From an uncultured Bacillota bacterium (GTDB taxonomy: Bacteria; Bacillota_I; Bacilli_A; RF39; UBA660): a DNA stretch of 57,575 bases. The first letter of the stretch is position 1. The number at the start of each line of letters is the position of its first letter. The translations under genes and the position numbers were made by a program. The notes under the pieces are model-generated. The model saw only the letters and a list, made by a program, of their open reading frames with translations. It ran no database searches and was not told the origin of the DNA. The stretch covers positions 1-57,575 of the forward strand of contig CAMOKF010000003.1 in assembly GCA_946617625.1 (NCBI GenBank), written 5' to 3'. Positions 5,808 to 57,575 of this stretch are shown here, in pieces.

Positions 5808-6635
5808 ATGAAAAATAAAATAGAATTAATTTCAAATCTTTTTGAAGGGGTAGAGATAAGAAGTGTCTGGGACCCTGAAAAAGAAGAATACTTTTTTAGT
5901 GTAGTTGATGTTATTTTTGCATTGACTGATAGTCATAATCCAAGAAGATATTGGACAGATTTAAAAAATAGAACTATTTCTGAAGGTAGTGAGTTGTACG
6001 CAAAAATCGTACAACTGAAAATGAAGTCTTCTAAAGATGGAAAAATGTACTTAACTGATACATTAGATACAGAAGGGATACTTAGACTTATTGAATCAAT
6101 TCCTTCACCTAAAGCAGAACCATTTAAAATGTGGTTAGCCTCTTTAGGAAAAGAAAGAGTTGATGAAGCTTTTGATCCTTCTATTGGAATAGATAAAATG
6201 ATTGACTTTTATCTTAACAAAGGTTATTCATTAGATTGGATTAAAGATAGAATAATTGCTATTGTTGATAGAAAAAAGCTTACTAATACATGGAGAAAAC
6301 ATGGAATTAGTGAAAGTAATGAATATGCTATTTTAACTAATGAAATATATAAAAGTTGGTCTGGTATGACTTCTTCAGAATATAAAAATTTAAAAGGTAT
6401 TCGAAAAGAAAATTTAAGAGATAATATGAGTGATTTAGAAATACTTTTAACTAATATAGGTGAAGTTGCTACTAGAGAGTTAACTAATGAGCATCATCCT
6501 ATTGGTTTAGAACAAAACAAATTAATTTCTGAAGTTGGTGGAAGTATTGCTAAAAACACTAAAGATGATTTAGAAAATAAATTAGGTAGAAAGATAATAA
6601 ATAGTAATAATAAATTAATAGATAAATATAAATAG
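5808..6635 (+). CDS. Bro-N domain / DNA-damage-inducible protein D (DinD)-like protein
   Basis: N-terminal Bro-N-like FEGVEIRSVWDPEKEEYFFSVVDVIFAL; C-terminal part resembles DinD (..YAILTNEIYKSWSGMTSSEYKNLKGIRKENLRDNMSDLEIL..); start set at ATG 5808 behind SD AGGGGG. Confidence 0.65.
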   Translation: MKNKIELISNLFEGVEIRSVWDPEKEEYFFSVVDVIFALTDSHNPRRYWTDLKNRTISEGSELYAKIVQLKMKSSKDGKMYLTDTLDTEGILRLIESIPSPKAEPFKMWLASLGKERVDEAFDPSIGIDKMIDFYLNKGYSLDWIKDRIIAIVDRKKLTNTWRKHGISESNEYAILTNEIYKSWSGMTSSEYKNLKGIRKENLRDNMSDLEILLTNIGEVATRELTNEHHPIGLEQNKLISEVGGSIAKNTKDDLENKLGRKIINSNNKLIDKYK

Positions 6636-6641
6636 AAAGTA

Positions 6642-9209
6642 GTGATTCTCGTGGCAAGAAAGAAAAATGAAACAGAAGAAGTATTAGAGAAGATATTTGA
6701 CTATACTCTTGAAGATATAATGGGAGAGAGATTTGGGTCTTACTCTAAATATATTATTCAAGATAGAGCTATACCTGATGCAAGAGATGGTTTAAAACCT
6801 GTTCAAAGACGTATTCTTTATTCAATGCATAAAGAGAAGAATACTTATGATAGAGGTTATCGTAAGTCTGCTAAGACTGTTGGAGATGTTATAGGTAATT
6901 ACCATCCACATGGTGATACATCAATATATGATGCAATGGTTCGTATGAGTCAACCTTGGAAGACAAGACTTCCATATATTGATATGCATGGTAATAATGG
7001 ATCTATAGATGGAGATTCTCCTGCTGCTTATCGTTATACTGAAGCTAGATTATCTAAAATAGCTAATGAGATGTTAAGAGATATTGATAAAGATACTGTA
7101 GAATTTGCTCCTAACTTTGATGATACTACTGTTGAACCTACAGTATTACCTGCTAGATTTCCAGCATTACTTGTATATGGTGCTCAAGGTATTTCTGCTG
7201 GTTATGCTACAAATATTCCTACCCATAACTTAAATGAAGTTGTAGATGCAACTATATATAGAATTGATCATCCTGATTGTTCATTAGAAGAATTAATGCA
7301 ATTTGTAAAAGGGCCTGATTTCCCTACAGGTGGTACTATAGAAGGTATTGAAGGCATTAAAGAAGCTTATAAAACAGGACGTGGAAGAATTGTTATCAAG
7401 AGTAAATATAATTGGGAAGAAACAAAAAATGGTACTTCATTAATTATTACAGAAATTCCATTTGAATCTAATAAAGCTCAAACAGTTAAGAAAATAGATG
7501 ATATTAGAATAGATAAAAAAATAGATGGAATATTAGAAGTAAGAGATGAATCAGCTGCTGATGTTAGAGTTGTTATTGATATTAAGAAAAATGCAAATAA
7601 AGAATTAATATTAAATTATCTATTAAAGAATACTGATATGCAAATTAGTTATAACTTTAATATGGTAGCTATAGTAAATAGAAGACCTAAATTACTTGGA
7701 CTTTCACAAAGCTTAGATGCATTTATTGTTCATCAAAAAGAAGTTGTAAGAAGAAGAACTGAATTTGATTTAAATCATGCTAAAGCAAGATTTCATATAG
7801 TAGAAGGATTAATTAAATGTATTTCAATATTAGATGAAGTTATTAAAGTAATTAGAGCTTCTAAGAATAAAGCTGAATCTAAAGAAAACTTAATGAAAGA
7901 GTTTGAGTTTAGTGAACCTCAAGCTGAAGCAATTGTTACTTTACAATTATACAGATTATCTAATACTGATGTAGTTGCATTAGAAAATGAATTAGAAAAT
8001 TTAAAGAAAGTAATAGAAGGTTTAACTGCTATACTTTCTTCTGAAAAAGTATTAATGAATGTTATTAAGAGAGATTTAAAAGAAGTAAATAAAGAGTATC
8101 CTACTCCTAGACTTACTGATATTAAAGAAGAAATTACTGATATAAAGATAGATGCTGATGCTATGATTCCTAAAGAGGATGTTGTAGTAGTAGTAACTAA
8201 AGATGGATATTTAAAACGTACATCATTTAGATCTTATCAAGCTTCACAAAGTGAAGACTTAACATTAAAAGAAAATGATTATGTTATCGGTTTATATGAA
8301 ATGAATACTACAGATGTATTATTAGTATTTACTAGTGGAGGTAATTATTTACATATACCTGTTCATATGATACCTGATTTAAAATGGAAAGATATGCCTA
8401 AACATGTAAGTAATGTAATAGAAGTACCGGCTGGAGAATCAATTATTTCTTGTATTCCTGCATATCAATTTGAATCTAATAAGAATATAATTACAGTTAC
8501 AAGAAATGGTATTGTTAAACGTTCTCCTCTTAAAGATTTCAAATTACAAAGGTATTCTAAAGCTTCTAGTTGTATGAAATTAAAAGGTGATGATACACTA
8601 TTAGATGCTTTTGTAGAAGAATATGACAATATTATGATGGTTACTGATGCTGGATATTTATTAACATTTAAAACAGAAGAAATACCTTTAATGGGAGTTA
8701 AAGCTAGTGGAGTTAAAGGTATGATGTTAAAACAAGATAAGGTTGTCTCAGCTACTACATTTAATAATACAGTACATGAATTTATTAGTTTAGTAACAGA
8801 TAAAGGAACTGGTAAGAGAGTTAGACTTTCTGAGTTTGAGTTATCATCTCGTACACGTAGAGGAGTTTTGGCTATACGTGAAGTAAAATCTAATCCATAT
8901 AAAGTATTAAAAGCATTTGTAACTGATAATAAGAATTATTTTGGATTAAAGAATGGTTCAATTACTTTAGTTAAAGCTACTGAGCTACCTATCGCAGATC
9001 GTTATTCTACAGGTTCTCAAATAATTAAACATAATTTAACTGATGCTTTTATAGTAGCATCTCTATCAAGTGCTAATGAAAGTCAAGATGAGTTAAATAT
9101 AGAAGTGGAAGAAACTAAAGAAGAAGAAAAAGTAATTCCAAAAAAAGATAAAATATCTTTATCTGAAATAGATGATAGATTAATGACTATAGATGATTTT
9201 CTAAAATAA
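6642..9209 (+). CDS. parC: DNA topoisomerase IV subunit A
   Basis: YSKYIIQDRAIPDARDGLKPVQRRILYSM, HPHGD, HGNNGSIDGDSPAAYRYTEARLS (ParC/GrlA-type HGNNGS rather than GyrA HGNFGS); no GyrA box; GTG start uncertain. Confidence 0.88.
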   Translation: MILVARKKNETEEVLEKIFDYTLEDIMGERFGSYSKYIIQDRAIPDARDGLKPVQRRILYSMHKEKNTYDRGYRKSAKTVGDVIGNYHPHGDTSIYDAMVRMSQPWKTRLPYIDMHGNNGSIDGDSPAAYRYTEARLSKIANEMLRDIDKDTVEFAPNFDDTTVEPTVLPARFPALLVYGAQGISAGYATNIPTHNLNEVVDATIYRIDHPDCSLEELMQFVKGPDFPTGGTIEGIEGIKEAYKTGRGRIVIKSKYNWEETKNGTSLIITEIPFESNKAQTVKKIDDIRIDKKIDGILEVRDESAADVRVVIDIKKNANKELILNYLLKNTDMQISYNFNMVAIVNRRPKLLGLSQSLDAFIVHQKEVVRRRTEFDLNHAKARFHIVEGLIKCISILDEVIKVIRASKNKAESKENLMKEFEFSEPQAEAIVTLQLYRLSNTDVVALENELENLKKVIEGLTAILSSEKVLMNVIKRDLKEVNKEYPTPRLTDIKEEITDIKIDADAMIPKEDVVVVVTKDGYLKRTSFRSYQASQSEDLTLKENDYVIGLYEMNTTDVLLVFTSGGNYLHIPVHMIPDLKWKDMPKHVSNVIEVPAGESIISCIPAYQFESNKNIITVTRNGIVKRSPLKDFKLQRYSKASSCMKLKGDDTLLDAFVEEYDNIMMVTDAGYLLTFKTEEIPLMGVKASGVKGMMLKQDKVVSATTFNNTVHEFISLVTDKGTGKRVRLSEFELSSRTRRGVLAIREVKSNPYKVLKAFVTDNKNYFGLKNGSITLVKATELPIADRYSTGSQIIKHNLTDAFIVASLSSANESQDELNIEVEETKEEEKVIPKKDKISLSEIDDRLMTIDDFLK

Positions 9210-35730: not shown

Positions 35731-36360
35731 ATGTTTAAGAAAAAGAATATTGCAATACTATTAAATTTATTAATAGTTGTTTTTGAAATAATTGCTATAT
35801 TTCAAATTATTGATATTAAAGGTAGTATGAATTTTAGTTTTTATACTGATGATAGTAATTTGTTAGCATTATTTACCTCTTTAGCTTTTGTTTTTTATTC
35901 TATTAGAAATAAAAAAATACCTGATTGGTTGAAATTACTAAAGCTAACATCTACTATTTGTTTAACTCTTACTTTTTTAGTTGTTTTATTAGTTTTAGCT
36001 CCAATGAATAATTTCAATTATGGTTTTTTATTGTTCTACAGTGCTTTATTATTTCAACACTTTTTATGTCCTATAATAAGTGTTATAACATTTATATTAT
36101 TTGATGATATTAATATTTCTAAATGGAAATATGATTTGTTAGCAACTGGGTTTACTGTTATTTATGGAATAATCATTATTACATTAAATGTTATTAAGTA
36201 TTTAGTTGGACCTTATCCATTTTTAGAGATCTATAATCAACCTCTTTGGCAAACAATTCTATGGATTATTGGGTTATTTTCATTAACTTATGCAATTGGA
36301 CTTATACTTAGAAAATCAGCTATTAAACTTAATACTATTACAAATAAATATTTAAAATAA
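35731..36360 (+). CDS. Integral membrane protein (about 6 TM), function unknown
   Basis: 209 aa, six hydrophobic segments. Confidence 0.45.
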   Translation: MFKKKNIAILLNLLIVVFEIIAIFQIIDIKGSMNFSFYTDDSNLLALFTSLAFVFYSIRNKKIPDWLKLLKLTSTICLTLTFLVVLLVLAPMNNFNYGFLLFYSALLFQHFLCPIISVITFILFDDINISKWKYDLLATGFTVIYGIIIITLNVIKYLVGPYPFLEIYNQPLWQTILWIIGLFSLTYAIGLILRKSAIKLNTITNKYLK

Positions 36361-36385
36361 TAATATAATTATATAAGGAGGATTT

Positions 36386-37213
36386 ATGATAGAAATTATA
36401 AAAGCTATTTTATTTGGTATTGTTGAAGGTATAACTGAATGGTTACCTATATCTAGTACAGGACATATGATATTATTAGATGATTTTGTTAATTTGAATG
36501 TTAGTGATGCTTTTTATGAAATGTTCGAAGTAGTTATACAGTTAGGAGCAATTTTGGCTGTTGTTGTTATTTACTTTAAAACTATTTTTCCATGGGGTTT
36601 TGGTAAAACAAAAACTGATACTAAGAACACTCTTAATTTATGGGGTAAAATATTAGTTGCTTGTTTACCTGCAGCTGTTATTGGAATTCTATTTGATGAT
36701 TGGTTAGATGAACATTTATATAATAGTATAGTTGTATCAATTGCTTTAATAGTATATGGTATTATATTTATTATTATTGAGAATAAAAATATTGGTTCTA
36801 AAGATACTAAAGAAGTAAATAAAATTACTTATAAGCAAGCATTAGAAATAGGAGCTTTTCAATTACTTGCATTAATACCTGGAACATCTAGAAGTGGATC
36901 TACTATTATTGGAGGATTACTAATTGGATTAGAGAGAAGTGTTGCTGCTGAATTTACTTTCTTTTTAGCAATACCAGTAATGGCTGGAGCATCACTTTTA
37001 AAACTAGTTAAATACTTTTTAAAAGTTGGATTTGTATTTAGTGGATTGGAACTTGCTATTTTGTGTGTAGGTTCTATAGTTGCTTTTATAGTAAGTATGT
37101 TTGTTATTAAATTCTTAATGAATTATATAAGGAAACATGATTTTAAAGTATTTGGTTACTATAGAATAGTATTAGGTATACTTGTACTTTTATATTTTTT
37201 ATTATTAAAATAG
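36386..37213 (+). CDS. uppP: Undecaprenyl-diphosphate phosphatase (BacA/UppP)
   Basis: GIVEGITEWLPISSTGHMILL, PGTSRSGSTIIGG. Confidence 0.92.
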   Translation: MIEIIKAILFGIVEGITEWLPISSTGHMILLDDFVNLNVSDAFYEMFEVVIQLGAILAVVVIYFKTIFPWGFGKTKTDTKNTLNLWGKILVACLPAAVIGILFDDWLDEHLYNSIVVSIALIVYGIIFIIIENKNIGSKDTKEVNKITYKQALEIGAFQLLALIPGTSRSGSTIIGGLLIGLERSVAAEFTFFLAIPVMAGASLLKLVKYFLKVGFVFSGLELAILCVGSIVAFIVSMFVIKFLMNYIRKHDFKVFGYYRIVLGILVLLYFLLLK

Positions 37214-37234
37214 AGTCTTTTGACTCTTTTTTTA
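37212..37234 (+). terminator. Short terminator after uppP
   Basis: AGAGTC-TTTT-GACTCT followed by T7; overlaps the -35 of the next promoter. Confidence 0.5.
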
Positions 37235-37248
37235 TTCCATGATATAAT
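37220..37248 (+). promoter_or_regulatory. Near-consensus sigma-A promoter with extended -10
   Basis: TTGACT - 17 nt - TATAAT with TG at 37240-37241. Confidence 0.7.
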
Positions 37249-37274
37249 ACGTAGTTAGAAAGGAAGGATTATAG

Positions 37275-37334
37275 ATGAGTTTATTTATTAGACAACATCA
37301 TCATAATAATCTGCACTTGTTAATACGACATTAA
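37275..37334 (+). CDS. Putative His-rich leader peptide (19 aa, MSLFIRQHHHNNLHLLIRH)
   Basis: SD AGGAAGG 7 nt upstream of the ATG; 5 of 19 codons are His including CAT CAT CAT at 37296-37304; ORF overlaps the first arm of alternative RNA helices. Confidence 0.45.
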   Translation: MSLFIRQHHHNNLHLLIRH

Positions 37335-37397
37335 ACTTTGTTGTAGGCGCAAGTGCTATTTGTGGTGCTTGTTGCCTGTATTAAATAGCTATACAGG
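37313..37397 (+). promoter_or_regulatory. Set of mutually exclusive RNA helices (attenuator-like)
   Basis: GCACTTG (37313-19)/CAAGTGC (37350-56); AGGCGCAAGTGC (37345-56)/GTGCTTGTTGCCT (37365-77); CCTGTAT (37375-81)/ATACAGG (37391-97), which competes with the terminator stem. Confidence 0.5.
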
Positions 37398-37416
37398 TTT
37401 CTGTATAGCTTTTTTT
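37387..37416 (+). terminator. Intrinsic terminator inside the 5' leader, upstream of the PRTase-like gene
   Basis: AGCTATACAG-GTTT-CTGTATAGCT (10 bp) followed by TTTTTT; lies 45 nt upstream of ATG 37462. Confidence 0.75.
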
Positions 37417-37461
37417 ATTCAACAAGCACTAAATATAATTATTATGAAGGAGATTTGTTGA

Positions 37462-38422
37462 ATGGAAAGAATAGAAGAAGGAATAGTATTTAGTAATGAT
37501 ATATATAGAATACTATGTGGGTATAATGCATTAGATTTTAATTATAATGATAAAAATATTATTATACCCAATAAGAAATTTATTAATTTATTAAGAAAAG
37601 ACTTTAGAAAAGATGTAGAAAGAATATTTCCTAAAGTTACTATTATAAGTGAAGGAGATATGTTGCTATATATAAATCAAAGTATATCAGATGTTTATAG
37701 GAGGTATCCCCATCGTATCACTGGATAAAGTATACTTAGAACCAGAATCTACATATATTGAATTTTTAGATTGTACGAGATTAGATGGTTCAAAAGAACT
37801 GGTGTCTAGAAAAGATCCAAATAACTTTGAAAGTGTTGATAATGATATTGAAAAAATAAGTAATAAACTAAAAAATAAAAATTATAATGGGATAGTTTTA
37901 GCAGATGATGTAGTGTTTTCTGGAAATGTACTTAAAAGTATTATTGATAAGTTTAATTCTAATGGTATTTCAGTTTTAGGCATTAGAAGTTGTATTAGTA
38001 TGAGAGAATCATATGAATATTTTAATGATGAATTACCTTTAGGTTTAAAGTGTGGCTGTGTCATGGAAGATAATGTAATAGATCAGATTTGTGAGAGAGA
38101 TTTTTATTTTGGAATACCTCAATCAGGTATTAGCATCAATACTAGTGATGGAGTTGTTAAAGCTCCTTACTTTAGACCTTTTGGGGACCCTGTTGCTAGA
38201 GCATCTATTCCAAATGTTTTTGAAGATTATTTTTCTAAAGGATGCTTAATTAGATCTTTAGCTTTATGGGATAGAATTAATACTTTAAGTAGTAGAGAGG
38301 TTCTAGTTAGAGACTTACCTGAGACAATTGTTAATACAAATTCTAATGATAGTGTTGTTAAAACTTTAAAAAAAGAAATAAATATAAATAGAGATACTAG
38401 AAATATTGGTTTTTCTAGATAG
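37462..38422 (+). CDS. Phosphoribosyltransferase (PRTase)-like protein encoded in two frames (37462-37728 and the +1 frame through 38422); needs a +1 shift at CCC_C 37708-37711, or is a frameshifted pseudogene
   Basis: PRPP-loop-like motif GIVLADDVVFSGNVLKSII in the second frame; the second frame has no SD before its only ATG (37691); the first frame has SD GAAGGAG; fused product would be about 319 aa. Confidence 0.5.
37699..37713 (+). promoter_or_regulatory. Candidate programmed +1 ribosomal frameshift signal
   Basis: AGGAGG TAT CCC CAT: internal SD 3 nt upstream of slippery CCC_C, same layout as E. coli prfB AGGGGG TAT CTT TGA; the 0-frame A-site codon is His (CAT); 0 frame stops at TAA 37726-37728. 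Confidence 0.45.
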
Positions 38423-38430
38423 GAGGAAAT

Positions 38431-38967
38431 ATGAATAAAATACAAATTGGTGTAATGGGTTCTGCGGCTGATTTAAATTATGGAGAAGATGTAATGAAGT
38501 TTGCTAAAGAATTAGGAAAATTAATTGGAAATAGTGGTAATATTTTAGTTTATGGTGCTGAAAAAGAGTATTCTTCTTTATCTACTTTAGCAGCAATTGA
38601 AGCTTCTAAAGTAGGAGGTATTACAGTTGGTATTACTGGAGGTAAAGGAAAAGACATATATGGTGATTTTAGACCTACAGTATTAATTCCTTGTGGATTG
38701 GAAATAGGTGGAGGAAGAGAATTTAGTTTAGTACTAGGATGTGATGTTATAATTGCAATTAGCGGAGGTTCTGGTACTTTAACTGAAATGGCTATAGCTT
38801 ATCAAGCTGGTATTCCTATAGTTACAATTAATTCTTTTGGAGGATGGTCTTCTAAATTATCAGATACTTATATTGATGATCGTAATAGATTAAAGTGTAT
38901 TAGTGCATCTACTCCTAAGGATGCTCTTAAGAAAGCAATTAAACTAGTAAAGTCTAACAATAGTTAG
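38431..38967 (+). CDS. LOG/SLOG-superfamily Rossmann protein (TIGR00725-like)
   Basis: 178 aa; IGVMGSA N-terminal glycine loop and ISGGSGTLTEMA (LOG-type GGxGTxxE motif); SD AGGAGG. Confidence 0.6.
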   Translation: MNKIQIGVMGSAADLNYGEDVMKFAKELGKLIGNSGNILVYGAEKEYSSLSTLAAIEASKVGGITVGITGGKGKDIYGDFRPTVLIPCGLEIGGGREFSLVLGCDVIIAISGGSGTLTEMAIAYQAGIPIVTINSFGGWSSKLSDTYIDDRNRLKCISASTPKDALKKAIKLVKSNNS

Positions 38968-39025
38968 ACTTTTTCATTGTAGTAATTTTTTAAATTTGTT
39001 ATTATTAATAATAGGAGAGTGCTTT

Positions 39026-39763
39026 ATGATGTTATTGTTTTATATTATTTTTGCTTTTAGTATTTTAGTTATAGTTGGCGTATTTGTTTTTATATCTTTA
39101 CATAAAACTACTAAATATAATTCTTCAGGAATAAAAATTGTTTATGATCCTGAAGATTTGAATCAAGAATCATTTCAAAATTATGCTAAATTTTATGGTA
39201 ATTTTGTTCCTACAGATGATTCATATGATATTAAATTAAATACTATTTATGATTTAATTACTAAGGATAACATCTTAGATATTAGAGAAATAGCTAGTAG
39301 GAGTAATTGCACTGAACTTGAATGTGTTTTGAAGATTAAGTATTTAAAGAATAAAAGGATGTTAGGAGATTATTATATAGATACTACTAATTATTTATTG
39401 GTACCTTGTAGTGTTTCTGATCAATTATTATTAGATAAGTATAAACCTTTTATTTATCATAGTCACTTGCAAGTAGATGAGATTGCAACTTTAATTCCTA
39501 ATCCTAATCATTTAAGTCTCATTGACTTAAGAAATCAAGTGTTTCATGAATTAAACTATTTAGATAATAAATCATTATTAAACGGAATATTAATTGATGA
39601 TGTAGATCGTACAATAACTTATTATACTATTGAGAAAAGAAAAGAAGTTAGAGGTCTTATTACTTCTCATTGTCCTAATTGTGGAGCTTTAAATGATGTG
39701 CAAATAGGTGGTAAGACTCGTTGTGGTTATTGTGGAACAATCATTGTAGGTAAAGAGGAATAA
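39026..39763 (+). CDS. N-terminally anchored membrane protein with two wHTH-like repeats and a C-terminal zinc ribbon
   Basis: Start at ATG 39026 (SD AGGAGAG); TM FYIIFAFSILVIVGVFVFISL; CPNCGA..x13..CGYCGTII. Confidence 0.4.
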   Translation: MMLLFYIIFAFSILVIVGVFVFISLHKTTKYNSSGIKIVYDPEDLNQESFQNYAKFYGNFVPTDDSYDIKLNTIYDLITKDNILDIREIASRSNCTELECVLKIKYLKNKRMLGDYYIDTTNYLLVPCSVSDQLLLDKYKPFIYHSHLQVDEIATLIPNPNHLSLIDLRNQVFHELNYLDNKSLLNGILIDDVDRTITYYTIEKRKEVRGLITSHCPNCGALNDVQIGGKTRCGYCGTIIVGKEE

Positions 39764-39766
39764 AAA

Positions 39767-40330
39767 ATGAAATGTAAAAAGTGTGGCAGCGTTTTAGATG
39801 GTAATGATTCTTTTTGTAGAATGTGTGGTAGTAAGATAAAAAGACTTGATAAGGGCTTAATTCTTATTATTATATTTGGAGTATTAGCATTCGCTTCTAT
39901 AGGTGGTTTAATATACTTTAGTTTAACAACTACTAGTACTAATAAAGTTAGGAATATTGATAATAGTTATTCTGCTATTACTGGAGATTGGGTAGATTCA
40001 TCTTTAAATAATATGTTTAGAATAACTAATACTAAGAGTTACGTTTGGTATCAAAACTACTCAATGGATAAAAATTCTTATATTACAGGTAACTTAAAAG
40101 TATTATCAGGAGATGATGCTTTACTAAAATTAAATATAGATTTAGATACAGTAAAGTCTCTTATTAATGTTGAAGATATTGTAGCTGATGATGTTTACTA
40201 TTTGCAGTTATTTACTTCTAATAAAAATATTAGGTATTCTTATTATAAGTTTTTAGTTGCTATAAGAGATGAAGATTTAATAATTTATAATTATAATGAT
40301 AAAGAGTTTTACTATTGTAGTAAGAGATAA
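39767..40330 (+). CDS. Zinc-ribbon / single-TM / extracytoplasmic-domain protein
   Basis: MKCKKCGS..x9..CRMCGSKI then TM LILIIIFGVLAFASIGGLIYF. Confidence 0.4.
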   Translation: MKCKKCGSVLDGNDSFCRMCGSKIKRLDKGLILIIIFGVLAFASIGGLIYFSLTTTSTNKVRNIDNSYSAITGDWVDSSLNNMFRITNTKSYVWYQNYSMDKNSYITGNLKVLSGDDALLKLNIDLDTVKSLINVEDIVADDVYYLQLFTSNKNIRYSYYKFLVAIRDEDLIIYNYNDKEFYYCSKR

Positions 40331-40381
40331 AACTAGTTTTTTCTAGACTTATGTGTTATAATATGCCCAGTGGTGATACTT

Positions 40382-41191
40382 ATGGGTGATGTAATAGATT
40401 TTAATTCTAATAATATTATTTATAATATGGCTCTAAAAGCTTTTACTAATAATAAATCTGTTATGCAAAAAAAGATTCTTAATTATACAAATAAAAAAGA
40501 ATTTGGAATTGATTTTATTTATAATTTGGCTGATACTGATGAATTTTTATATGAATTAGAAACTTTGATTTGTAATAAAGAATTTCTTAAGAATATAAGC
40601 TTTTATTATATGGCTTTAACTAATTATGGTAATTATTCTGTAAAGAATAATGGTATTTGTGGTAGTATTGATCAAGATTTTTTTATTAATATAAATGTTG
40701 ATAAGGGAAGTATTAAATATAGTTGTAGAAATTTTGATAACTATGAAAAGGGTTATCTGAAATTTTTTGATAATAAGTATTTTATTAATTATAGAAATGG
40801 TAATTGTAATAAGATGATTAATTTGAAAGATATTAAGTCACTTCATAATGATTCTAATAATTCAATGTCTTTCTTTTTTAATTATGATAATGAAAAAATA
40901 TCTAAGAAGAGTATTGAAAAAGAAAGTAATTATTATTATAAAAATAATAAAAAAGAATATATATCATCTAGTAATGATACTAATGTTTTAGATATAAAAA
41001 GATTTAATAAAGTTAAAAATCTTGTTTTATATAATCATATTAAAAAATATTTAAATAGTGATTCTTTAGATTTAGTAAATAAAAATAATTATTATTATGG
41101 ATATGATTTTGATGATAATTTTGATGTTTCTAAGATTCGTTTTATTGAAACTGATAACATTTTTTATAAAACTTTAATTAAGAGAAAGTAG
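40382..41191 (+). CDS. Hypothetical N/Y/K-rich cytoplasmic protein
   Basis: About 269 aa from ATG 40382; preceded by extended -10 TGtTATAAT; no recognisable motif. Confidence 0.35.
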   Translation: MGDVIDFNSNNIIYNMALKAFTNNKSVMQKKILNYTNKKEFGIDFIYNLADTDEFLYELETLICNKEFLKNISFYYMALTNYGNYSVKNNGICGSIDQDFFININVDKGSIKYSCRNFDNYEKGYLKFFDNKYFINYRNGNCNKMINLKDIKSLHNDSNNSMSFFFNYDNEKISKKSIEKESNYYYKNNKKEYISSSNDTNVLDIKRFNKVKNLVLYNHIKKYLNSDSLDLVNKNNYYYGYDFDDNFDVSKIRFIETDNIFYKTLIKRK

Positions 41192-45137: not shown

Positions 45138-46376
45138 ATGAGTACTTATATTTGTATAGATTTAAAAAGTTTTTATGCATCTGTTGAGTGTGTTGAGAGA
45201 GGACTTGATTCGATGGAGAGTAATTTAGTAGTTGCTGATCCTACTCGTGGAGGTGGTGCTATATGTTTAGCTGTCTCTCCCCATTTAAAAGCTTTAGGAG
45301 TACGTAATAGGTGTCGTATTTTTGAAATACCAAAAGATATTGATTATATTACTGCTGTACCGAGAATGAAGAAATATATTGAATACTCAGCTAATATCTA
45401 TGAGATTTATTTAAAATATATATCAAAAGATGATATACATGTATATTCTATTGATGAAGCTTTTTTAGATGTTACTAATTATTTGAAATTATATAGGAAA
45501 AGTCCGAAGGATTTAGCTTTAACTATTATGAATGATATATATGATAAGTATGGTATCAGAGCTACTGCTGGTATTGGAACTAATTTATATTTATGTAAGA
45601 TAGCTTTAGATATTATTGCAAAACATGCTCCTGATTTTATTGGAATATTAGATGAAGACAGTTATAAGGAGCAATTATGGTTCTATGAGCCATTATCTGA
45701 TTTTTGGCAGATAGGTACTGGTATTTCCAACAGACTTCATAGACTAAATATTCATAATATGTATGAATTATCTATTCATGATGAGCGAGAACTATTTAAA
45801 GAATTCGGAATAAATGCTCGATTACTTATTGATCATTCTAAAGGAATAGAACCTACTACTATAAAAGAAATAAAAGAATATAAGCCTAAACATAAATCTA
45901 TTTCTAATAGTCAAATATTATTTAAAGATTATAATAAGGAAGATGCATTAAAAGTACTTATTGAAATGTTAGATATTGCATATTTAGAACTTATTAGGAT
46001 TAATAAGTATACTTCATGTATTTCTTTTTATGTTGGATATTCAAAAGATGTTATTAGTCCTTTATCCTTATCCAGAAAGATAGATTCTACTGATAGTTTT
46101 CAAGTATTACTTAAATGTTTAATAGACAACTATAATAGATATGTATCTAATACATATAAAATAAGACGTTTAGGAATAACTTTATCTTGCCTTTGCTCTA
46201 GTAGTGTGCAACTTAATTTATTTAGTAAAAATGACTGTGAAGAAGAAATAGGTCATGCTATTAACGAAGTAAAAGATAAGTATGGAAAAAACTATCTTTT
46301 TAGGGGAGTGAGTTTAGAAGAAAATGCTACTGCTTTAAAAAGAAATAGATTAATAGGAGGACATAATGCAGAATGA
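45138..46376 (+). CDS. Y-family (translesion) DNA polymerase, UvrX/YqjW/ImpB type
   Basis: YICIDLKSFYASVE, SIDEAFLDVT catalytic motifs; SOS box upstream; YolD-like partner. Confidence 0.85.
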   Translation: MSTYICIDLKSFYASVECVERGLDSMESNLVVADPTRGGGAICLAVSPHLKALGVRNRCRIFEIPKDIDYITAVPRMKKYIEYSANIYEIYLKYISKDDIHVYSIDEAFLDVTNYLKLYRKSPKDLALTIMNDIYDKYGIRATAGIGTNLYLCKIALDIIAKHAPDFIGILDEDSYKEQLWFYEPLSDFWQIGTGISNRLHRLNIHNMYELSIHDERELFKEFGINARLLIDHSKGIEPTTIKEIKEYKPKHKSISNSQILFKDYNKEDALKVLIEMLDIAYLELIRINKYTSCISFYVGYSKDVISPLSLSRKIDSTDSFQVLLKCLIDNYNRYVSNTYKIRRLGITLSCLCSSSVQLNLFSKNDCEEEIGHAINEVKDKYGKNYLFRGVSLEENATALKRNRLIGGHNAE

Positions 46377-57235: not shown

Positions 57236-57575
57236 ATGGATAATAATCAAATGAATGATAATCAAAATAATGGACAAATGAATAATAATATGGGTCAATA
57301 TCAAAATACAAATATGAATGGTCAATATCAAAATACAAATATGAATGGACAATATCAAAACCCAAACATGAATGGTCAATATCAAAACCCAAACATGAAT
57401 GGACAATATCAAAACCCAAACATGAATGGTCAATATCAAAACCCAAACATGAATGGTCCTAGAGGATTAGTAGTTGAAACTAATATAATACTTGCTGTTA
57501 TACTTACTATTGTAACTTGTGGTATTTATGGAATTTATTGGTTTGTTAAAATGACTGATGAATCTAATAATATAT
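57236..57575 (+). CDS. DUF4234-like membrane protein with N-terminal N/Q-rich tandem repeats (partial, runs off the window)
   Basis: SD AGAGGAG; MDNNQMNDNQ..(GQYQNxNMN)x6..; TM ILAVILTIVTCGIYGIYWF typical of DUF4234; absent from the ORF track because there is no stop in the window. Confidence 0.6.
   Translation, partial: MDNNQMNDNQNNGQMNNNMGQYQNTNMNGQYQNTNMNGQYQNPNMNGQYQNPNMNGQYQNPNMNGQYQNPNMNGPRGLVVETNIILAVILTIVTCGIYGIYWFVKMTDESNNI
57293..57454 (+). repeat. Six tandem 27-bp in-frame repeats
   Basis: GG(T/A)CAATATCAAAA(TACAAAT/CCCAAAC)ATGAAT; two copies of the first variant, four of the second. Confidence 0.95.

Follow-up and report, generated by a model that had tools for sequence, protein, structure and literature searches.

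The stretch of DNA analysed here (the window) comprises 57,575 nucleotides of contig CAMOKF010000003.1 (assembly GCA_946617625.1) from an uncultured Bacillota bacterium. It contains a phosphoribosyltransferase-like (PRTase-like) gene that is encoded in two frames, and the junction between these frames is the subject of this study; the features of the locus are collected in Table 1. The 0 frame opens with ATG 37462, preceded by GAAGGAG at 37446-37452. It ends in ...GAT GTT TAT AGG AGG TAT CCC CAT CGT ATC ACT GGA TAA, with the stop codon at 37726-37728 and a product of 88 aa, and aligns to residues 1-83 of the uninterrupted homologues. The +1 frame is open from 37676, past TAA 37673-37675, to TAG 38420-38422. 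Its single ATG (37691) has no Shine-Dalgarno (SD) sequence. The two frames cross at AGG AGG TAT CCC CAT. Joining them after CCC gives a protein of 319 aa with the junction ..DVYRRYP-IVSLDK.., and this junction aligns collinearly with homologues encoded in a single frame, such as P0005 (..DVYRQYPIVSLDS..). In gene-caller annotation the locus appears as two proteins, of 88 aa and 243 aa. The original prediction had described a two-frame layout with an internal SD sequence exactly 3 nt 5' of a CCC_C slippery codon, and re-reading of the coordinates bore out both the layout and the spacing (AGGAGG 37699-37704, TAT, CCC 37708-37710).

The fused protein contains the phosphoribosyl pyrophosphate (PRPP)-binding-loop motif IVLADDVVFSG. 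The Pfam matches to PRTase-CE (18.9 bits) and Pribosyltran (16.5 bits) were both below the cut-offs. An AlphaFold2 model of the fused chain reached a predicted local distance difference test score (pLDDT) of 94.3, with 95 across the junction, and a predicted template-modelling (TM) score of 0.89. Foldseek matches of this model to HGPRT and OPRT were weak (TM 0.24-0.44). The fused sequence is confidently predicted to fold as one globular protein, and by its sequence the product is probably a divergent type-I PRTase-like enzyme. A PADLOC search gave no meaningful match to a defence system.

Conservation of the split junction

The junction was read in 55 species-representative genomic loci, and the window was added as the 40th split gene. 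A protein search returned two length classes of homologues, full-length proteins of ~305-325 aa and short proteins of ~229-245 aa; the short ones begin with M..GG(I/F)PIVSLD, i.e. at the junction. The split lies at the window's position (site 1) in 39 loci and the window. Nine loci are in frame throughout (L001-L006, L014, L046, and L049); L045 and L052-L055 are in frame at site 1, with the frame broken elsewhere in the gene. Every split gene reads NNY CCC C AT(T/C) at the junction. All 40 have C both at the wobble position of the 0-frame Pro codon and at the skipped base, and nearby synonymous positions vary freely. C-A-T follows CCC in all 40 genes, position -1 to CCC is T in 38 and C in two, and 31 have TAT as the E-site codon. 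The offset between the frames never differs from +1, and there are no indels at the junction. The region in which the frames could be exchanged is as short as ~25 nt (e.g. L015), and CCC-C is the only spot there where a P-site tRNA could re-pair in the +1 frame.

The arrangement of 88 aa plus 242/243 aa is kept by close relatives in five independent metagenome assemblies. A 33-nt block round the site is invariant among them, and its flanks differ. The more than 50% diverged L067 is also split (TGT CCC C ATT), and identity among the split proteins falls to 42% (median 53%). The ratio of nonsynonymous to synonymous substitution rates (dN/dS) is 0.2-0.6 for the N-terminal part in the 0 frame and 0.11-0.33 for the C-terminal part in the +1 frame. 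Judged by these ratios, purifying selection acts on both halves, each in its own frame. In 11 of the 40 split genes, no ATG, GTG or TTG was found in the second frame between the upstream stop and 30 nt past the junction. Two other frame breaks, in L045 (AAG-C GGA, 2125-2140) and L051 (GAAAAAT, an A5 run, 2030-2045), were set aside as unconserved singletons without CCC; these are probably assembly errors or decaying copies (pseudogenes).

The in-frame genes with Pro at site 1 (n=12) use CCA (9) or CCT (3), and none uses CCC. Across the loci 5.6% of the Pro codons are CCC, and in the window 2%. In the phylogenetic tree, the in-frame genes L001 (100% bootstrap) and L005 (74%) are nested inside the split clade; the in-frame genes nested there have lost both CCC-C and the SD-like element.

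Pairing with the anti-SD sequence was evaluated for the 16 nt upstream of CCC against the 16S rRNA 3' end. The AGGAGG(T) duplex of the window has -11.6 kcal/mol, versus a gene background of about -3. The mean is -9.5 kcal/mol in the split genes, compared with -3.0 in the in-frame orthologues and -3.0 in the rest of the same genes. The site is within the top 5% of its own gene in 31/40 split genes versus 0/9 in-frame genes (Mann-Whitney p = 4e-5). Two flavours of the element were recognized: (A/G)GGAGG-N3-CCC, as in the window and with exactly the spacing of prfB; and GGTGGTGA-ATAT-CCC. The original prediction had named conservation of AGGAGG-N3-CCCC and of the two-frame arrangement among orthologues as support for programmed shifting. 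The arrangement and CCC-C are indeed kept in 40/40 split genes, but SD-like pairing only in 31/40 and GGAGG-N3-CCC in 9/40. On the 3' side, RNAalifold predicted zero pairs for 35 split genes, and the 100 nt downstream of the window's site fold no better than shuffles (z = -0.15); a 3' stimulator RNA was therefore ruled out.

A second site was found in a distant clade. L052-L055 (40-42% identity) are in frame at site 1 with CCA or CCT, and L061-L066 are in frame there too; both sets are split ~60 codons further downstream, just before the PRPP loop (L052:1612; L053-L055:3406). All 10 DNA sequences carry NNY CCC C AT(T/C/A) at this site 2 (AAT/TGT/TAT/CGT/CGC/TTT CCC C ATH GAR RTT TCG CTT...), and C-A-T follows CCC in 10/10. 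The predicted trans-frame junction peptide of L052 is ...NPIEISLIDDVVFSGSMITK. Eight further 90%-identity protein clusters begin at the site-2 junction. P0209 (L068) was also considered as such a start and was rejected, as it is a GTG-initiated truncated gene with no N-terminal open reading frame (ORF) upstream. The nearest in-frame relative, P0123, has no Pro at site 2. By sequence comparison, the site-2 cassette is an independent origin within the same gene family. Since this clade carries CCC C AT independently, the family would have fixed this signal, CAU as the 0-frame A-site codon included, on two occasions.

Within the 57-kb window, the frameshift cassette is present in this gene alone. 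The CCCC runs at 2073 and 21721 are neither of them an in-frame CCC-C on the coding strand. An in-frame TCT CCC CAT at 45279-45284, in ORF 45138-46376, served as an internal control: it has no SD-like pairing (-0.9 kcal/mol) and is read normally, and a +1 slip there would meet a stop one codon on. From its N-terminal sequence, we take this ORF to encode a Y-family DNA polymerase-like (DinB-like) protein. The tRNA genes of the window are tRNA-Met and tRNA-Leu only. A look-alike of the cassette, GAAGAGG TAT CCC CAT C, occurs in frame at L014:6580-6606, and the 0 frame runs on for 70 codons. It lies in an unrelated gene (ORF 6085-6837) for a YgjV-like membrane protein and is probably due to chance.

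The histidine leader and the operon

The PRTase-like gene is preceded by a leader and followed by a SLOG-family gene. The promoter-like site sits just after the uppP terminator (37212-37227). About 190 nt upstream of the gene, ~41/49 loci, split and in-frame alike, have a small ORF that contains a run of His codons (HHH, or HH in a few). The run is also kept in the site-2 clade and in the outgroup L049, where the RNA downstream of it differs. The N-terminal part of the leader peptide is variable but always in frame, and the stop varies among TAA, TAG, and TGA.

The leader region 37275-37416 (peptide end …QHHHNNLHLLIRH, then the stop) contains five interacting RNA segments in the main clade. 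Almost every clade has it, also where the genes are in frame. The helices 1:2, 2:3, and 3:4 and the terminator are 89-99% paired overall, with compensatory changes: helix 1:2 has 99% of its cells paired in the outer and 89% in the inner part, helix 2:3 has 89% and four compensatory pairs, and the terminator has 97% and five compensatory pairs. The fold z-score of the attenuator is -7.8. When 36000-40500 was scanned against Rfam (E <= 1), no leader or riboswitch family matched; the single hit, to the microRNA family mir-9424 on the terminator hairpin, was spurious. L002-L004 keep the RNA although their small ORF ends four codons early; conservation of LHLLIRH is therefore at the RNA level.

Masked-folding simulations compared two ribosome positions, the first His codon and the stop. 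The 5' arm of the terminator was sequestered more strongly with the former position in 25 loci and with the latter in 8, and there was no difference in another 8. The simpler leader architecture of L052 points the same way. The architecture and these simulations suggest that a ribosome stalled at the His codons would lead to read-through. The original prediction had mentioned a His-rich leader upstream, and comparison across the loci upheld it: the element is conserved and has the sequence features of a leader-peptide attenuator with an HHH run. This leader is older than the frameshift. In one leader subgroup only, a further pairing was noticed across the terminator hairpin, in the window between 37363-37373 (GGTGCTTGTTG) and 37421-37430 (CAACAAGCAC), which covaries in L007, L009, L010, and L025 (GATGC with GCATC).

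The SLOG gene stands immediately 3' of the PRTase-like gene in 54/55 related loci (59-79% identity). The histidyl-tRNA synthetase (HisRS) gene hisS follows directly, 8-10 nt 3' of the SLOG gene, in 14 loci (L013 (4475-5764), L016, L019, L023, L027, L029, L030, L032, L035, L036, L040, L044, L047, and L048). A HisRS-like gene (33% identity) is adjacent in three more (L005:162-1430, L045:440-1705, and L046:574-1818). No hisS is present in the window, where the SLOG gene is followed by a terminator. Because hisS or HisRS-like genes adjoin it, the PRTase-like/SLOG pair appears to be functionally tied to His-tRNA. In the in-frame outgroup L014 (4448-5847), two more ORFs follow the SLOG gene. Judged by sequence alone, they are presumably a PfkB-type kinase and a HAD-type nucleotidase; such neighbours would hint at a role of the operon in nucleoside or nucleotide metabolism. 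Our literature search found no description of this frameshift or of a PRTase-SLOG operon.

The window as a whole has a GC content of 27% and a strong strand asymmetry (+ strand G 17.3%, C 9.8%), and of its 58 ORFs with 100 aa or more, 51 lie on the + strand. A 27-nt unit (consensus GGTCAATATCAAAACCCAAACATGAAT) is repeated in tandem at 57293-57458, in 6.1 copies that match at 94%; if translated, it would give a 9-aa repeat.

Table 1. Coordinates of the leader, the PRTase-like gene with its predicted shift site, and the SLOG gene in the window.
Feature	Position	Strand	Details
Promoter-like TTGACT-17 nt-TATAAT (TG-extended) of the leader-PRTase-SLOG operon	37220..37248	+	11/12 consensus matches
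Leader small ORF, MSLFIRQHHHNNLHLLIRH and stop	37275..37334	+	three consecutive CAT codons, 37296-37304
Predicted attenuator RNA: mutually exclusive helices 1:2, 2:3, 3:4 and intrinsic terminator	37308..37416	+	stem 37387-37410 and T-run
0-frame ORF	37462..37728	+	83 N-terminal PRTase-like codons, 5-codon tail HRITG, TAA
Internal SD-like AGGAGG(T), 3 nt 5' of the shift codon	37699..37705	+	AGGAGG itself 37699-37704
E-site codon TAT	37705..37707	+	
Slippery CCC_C	37708..37711	+	P-site Pro codon 37708-37710 and skipped C 37711
Competing A-site codons		+	CAT (His, 0 frame) 37711-37713; ATC (Ile, +1 frame) 37712-37714
+1-frame continuation, residues 84-319	37712..38422	+	PRPP loop IVLADDVVFSG; stop TAG 38420-38422
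SLOG cluster-4 / TIGR00725-like gene	38431..38967	+	own AGGAGG; terminator 38949-38972 after it

Proposed mechanism and alternative explanations

Comparative sequence analysis suggests that the PRTase-like gene is very probably expressed by programmed, prfB-like +1 ribosomal frameshifting. Ribosomes would initiate at ATG 37462 and translate 83 codons. The peptidyl-tRNA-Pro on CCC 37708-37710 in the P site would then re-pair one base forward, on CC-C. C37711 would be skipped, and decoding would resume with ATC GTA and continue to the TAG ending at 38422, giving the 319-aa enzyme with the junction ..RRYP-IVSLDK.. The unshifted ribosomes would decode CAT CGT ATC ACT GGA TAA and release the 88-aa fragment. 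In the window and most relatives, the SD-like sequence 3 nt 5' of the shift codon may pair with the 16S rRNA 3' end and stimulate the shift as in prfB, and no 3' stimulator RNA would be involved. In the A site, the sense codon CAU (His) would compete with the +1-frame codon AUY (Ile). The original prediction of a programmed prfB-like shift that yields a product of ~319 aa is strongly supported by the invariant CCC-C, the selection on both halves, the missing start codons, the enrichment of SD-like pairing, and the second site.

The original prediction had named a trivial alternative, a 1-nt insertion or sequencing error in the C run that makes the gene a pseudogene. Singleton frame breaks do occur in two metagenome-assembled genomes (MAGs), L045 and L051, although at non-CCC sequences. 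At this junction, the identical arrangement is shared by ~50 sequences from dozens of independent short-read assemblies, and both halves are under purifying selection. An artefactual C would also imply a true CCC everywhere, but the in-frame relatives, with CCA or CCT, never use it. This alternative is contradicted by these results and is close to untenable. Repair at the RNA level, by slippage of RNA polymerase on C4 or by editing that removes one C, would be followed by standard translation. The conserved element is a homopolymeric run, and context-dependent loss of one C at T5C5 is known from a Roseiflexus IS element (PMC5009743). However, C4 is far shorter than the known slippage runs, and there is no adjacent GC-rich nascent-RNA hairpin. 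Near-identical in-frame proteins are not found among the assemblies, the closest in-frame relative being 59-62% identical. It is complementarity to 16S rRNA that co-varies with the split, and this speaks for the ribosome. RNA-level repair is thus highly improbable, and we infer a ribosomal mechanism instead. Gene fission, with two separate polypeptides, would explain the two annotated proteins of 88 aa and 243 aa. The SD-like element would then be a ribosome-binding site for the AUU/AUC Ile codon 7 nt downstream, and AGGAGG does stand at a good initiation spacing, 7 nt before ATC 37712; or else translation would start at ATG 37691, which has no SD sequence. Yet fission would put no constraint on the last base of the Pro codon or on the base after it, and both are C in 40/40 (site 1) and 10/10 (site 2) in genomes of ~10% C. 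The offset that never departs from +1, the nine split genes with no SD-like element, the 11 with no ATG, GTG or TTG, and the fused chain predicted as a single protein across the junction also make this explanation very unlikely.

A ribosomal shift might also have no regulatory role. An inserted C could have been tolerated on the slippery CCC-C, with the site then kept and SD-improved and the His codon incidental; the shift would in that case amount to correction of an indel during translation. This is a real possibility, if a somewhat doubtful one. The in-frame orthologues nested in the split clade imply that the enzyme works without the shift, and the His leader also precedes in-frame genes. 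There is a spontaneous parallel in E. coli, where slippage at CCC-AGG rescues a +1 insertion in rpoB with ~5% efficiency (PMC7022156). On the other side, the cassette arose twice at different positions of the family and is found in no other gene of the 57-kb window. The split is kept down to 42% identity, though a single-base deletion would repair it. Both origins put CAU in the A site, within a His-leader operon that often contains hisS. As the operon is tied to His-tRNA, it is plausible, as the original prediction proposed, that low His-tRNA, through slow decoding of CAU, raises the shift: with scarce His-tRNA, the ribosome would pause at CAU, and slippage of tRNA-Pro on CCC-C would result. 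In operons that continue into hisS, the shift may also affect hisS expression via translation-dependent polarity. We would only tentatively propose that the operon senses charged His-tRNA twice, by the HHH attenuator on transcription and by a CAU-gated +1 shift, and that it was selected twice.

Several points weigh against these interpretations. The trans-frame product and the shift are predicted here from comparative sequence analysis, and the loci compared are not phylogenetically independent. AT-rich genomes commonly use CAU for His, and it is not obviously slow. The slippery C together with the conserved Ile codon also dictates this CAU, which therefore cannot count as separate evidence that histidine is sensed. 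SD-like pairing is missing in 9/40 split genes and is not obligatory; since these genes lack one, the element might enhance the shift rather than define the site. CCC codons followed by C occur in frame at the expected rate (15/143) and are not depleted in these genomes, so CCC-C alone is not highly shifty. As the site at 45279 is also read in frame, the preferred +1 shift would be context dependent; general quadruplet decoding and genome-wide avoidance of CCC-C were both ruled out.

To our knowledge, prfB is essentially the sole widely conserved programmed +1 frameshift among bacterial chromosomal genes. The PRTase-like gene would be a second conserved bacterial +1 case, in a large family of uncultured gut bacteria. 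Its new features would be the CCC-C slippery codon, a sense A-site codon, an optional prfB-like SD stimulator, and two origins in one family. It might provide a natural system for studying combined P-site tRNA-Pro slippage, SD-anti-SD tension, and A-site tRNA supply, and the link to the His leader and hisS offers a direct test of whether frameshifting acts as an amino-acid sensor. If limiting His-tRNA raises the shift, the operon would, together with the HHH attenuator, respond twice to histidine starvation. If the double sensing of His-tRNA is true, this gene would be the first case in which amino-acid supply controls a natural +1 frameshift in bacteria. Since gene callers split these genes into two hypothetical proteins, the annotations of the family are systematically wrong.

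Comparison with known systems

The E. coli prfB site is AGG GGG UAU CUU UGA C, with the same TAT E-site codon as here. Both genes are arranged in the 0 and +1 frames, with an internal SD-like sequence exactly 3 nt 5' of the shift codon (in the window). In both, the P-site tRNA would slip within a pyrimidine run to the same codon or a very similar one, CUU_U in prfB and CCC_C here. In prfB orthologues that do without the frameshift, neither the slippery run nor the SD-like element is present (PMC12421855), and the same loss is seen in the frameshift-free orthologues of the PRTase-like gene. However, the P-site codon is CUU (Leu) in prfB and CCC (Pro) here. The A site holds UGA, read by RF2, in prfB, and the sense codon CAU here, with the 0-frame stop five codons further on. 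No release-factor autoregulation is therefore expected, and the gene would be prfB-like in mechanism rather than a member of the prfB system. The SD-like element is also missing in about one quarter of the lineages, and the gene encodes a PRTase-like enzyme instead of a translation factor.

CCC is a known +1-prone P-site codon (PMC5009743 and PMC7022156). The Listeria phages PSA, A118, and A500 have +1 shifts at CCC, with CCC_UGA in tsh and ACA_CCC_UCC in PSA cps. As proposed for the present gene, peptidyl-tRNA-Pro slips by +1 there at a rare CCC, against a low-GC Firmicute background (PMC5009743). The phage genes are structural genes that make two products, the fourth base is U there and C here, and the passage on the phage sites describes no SD-like 5' stimulator for them. 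No conserved 3' structure is found here.

In yeast Ty1, slow decoding of the A site promotes +1 P-site slippage at CUU_AGG_C. In hungry-codon +1 shifts, the P-site tRNA slips while a sense A-site codon awaits its tRNA, as at E. coli rpoB CCC_AGG (PMC10861913 and PMC7022156). By analogy, a shift of the same class would be sensitive to His-tRNA here. As CAU is not rare in these genomes, its slowness would have to come from starvation.

The leader resembles the attenuation systems of E. coli hisL and pheM-pheST in having a short ORF with a His-codon run, alternative helices, and an intrinsic terminator, and in the presence of hisS in the operon at 14 loci. In Firmicutes, hisS and the his genes are usually controlled by T-boxes. 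The present leader matches neither the Rfam His_leader nor another Rfam family, and it occurs in uncultured gut MAGs that are labelled Bacilli or Clostridia in the records. It also differs from hisL-type attenuators in its five interacting segments in the main clade, and in that the controlled genes are a PRTase-like/SLOG pair.

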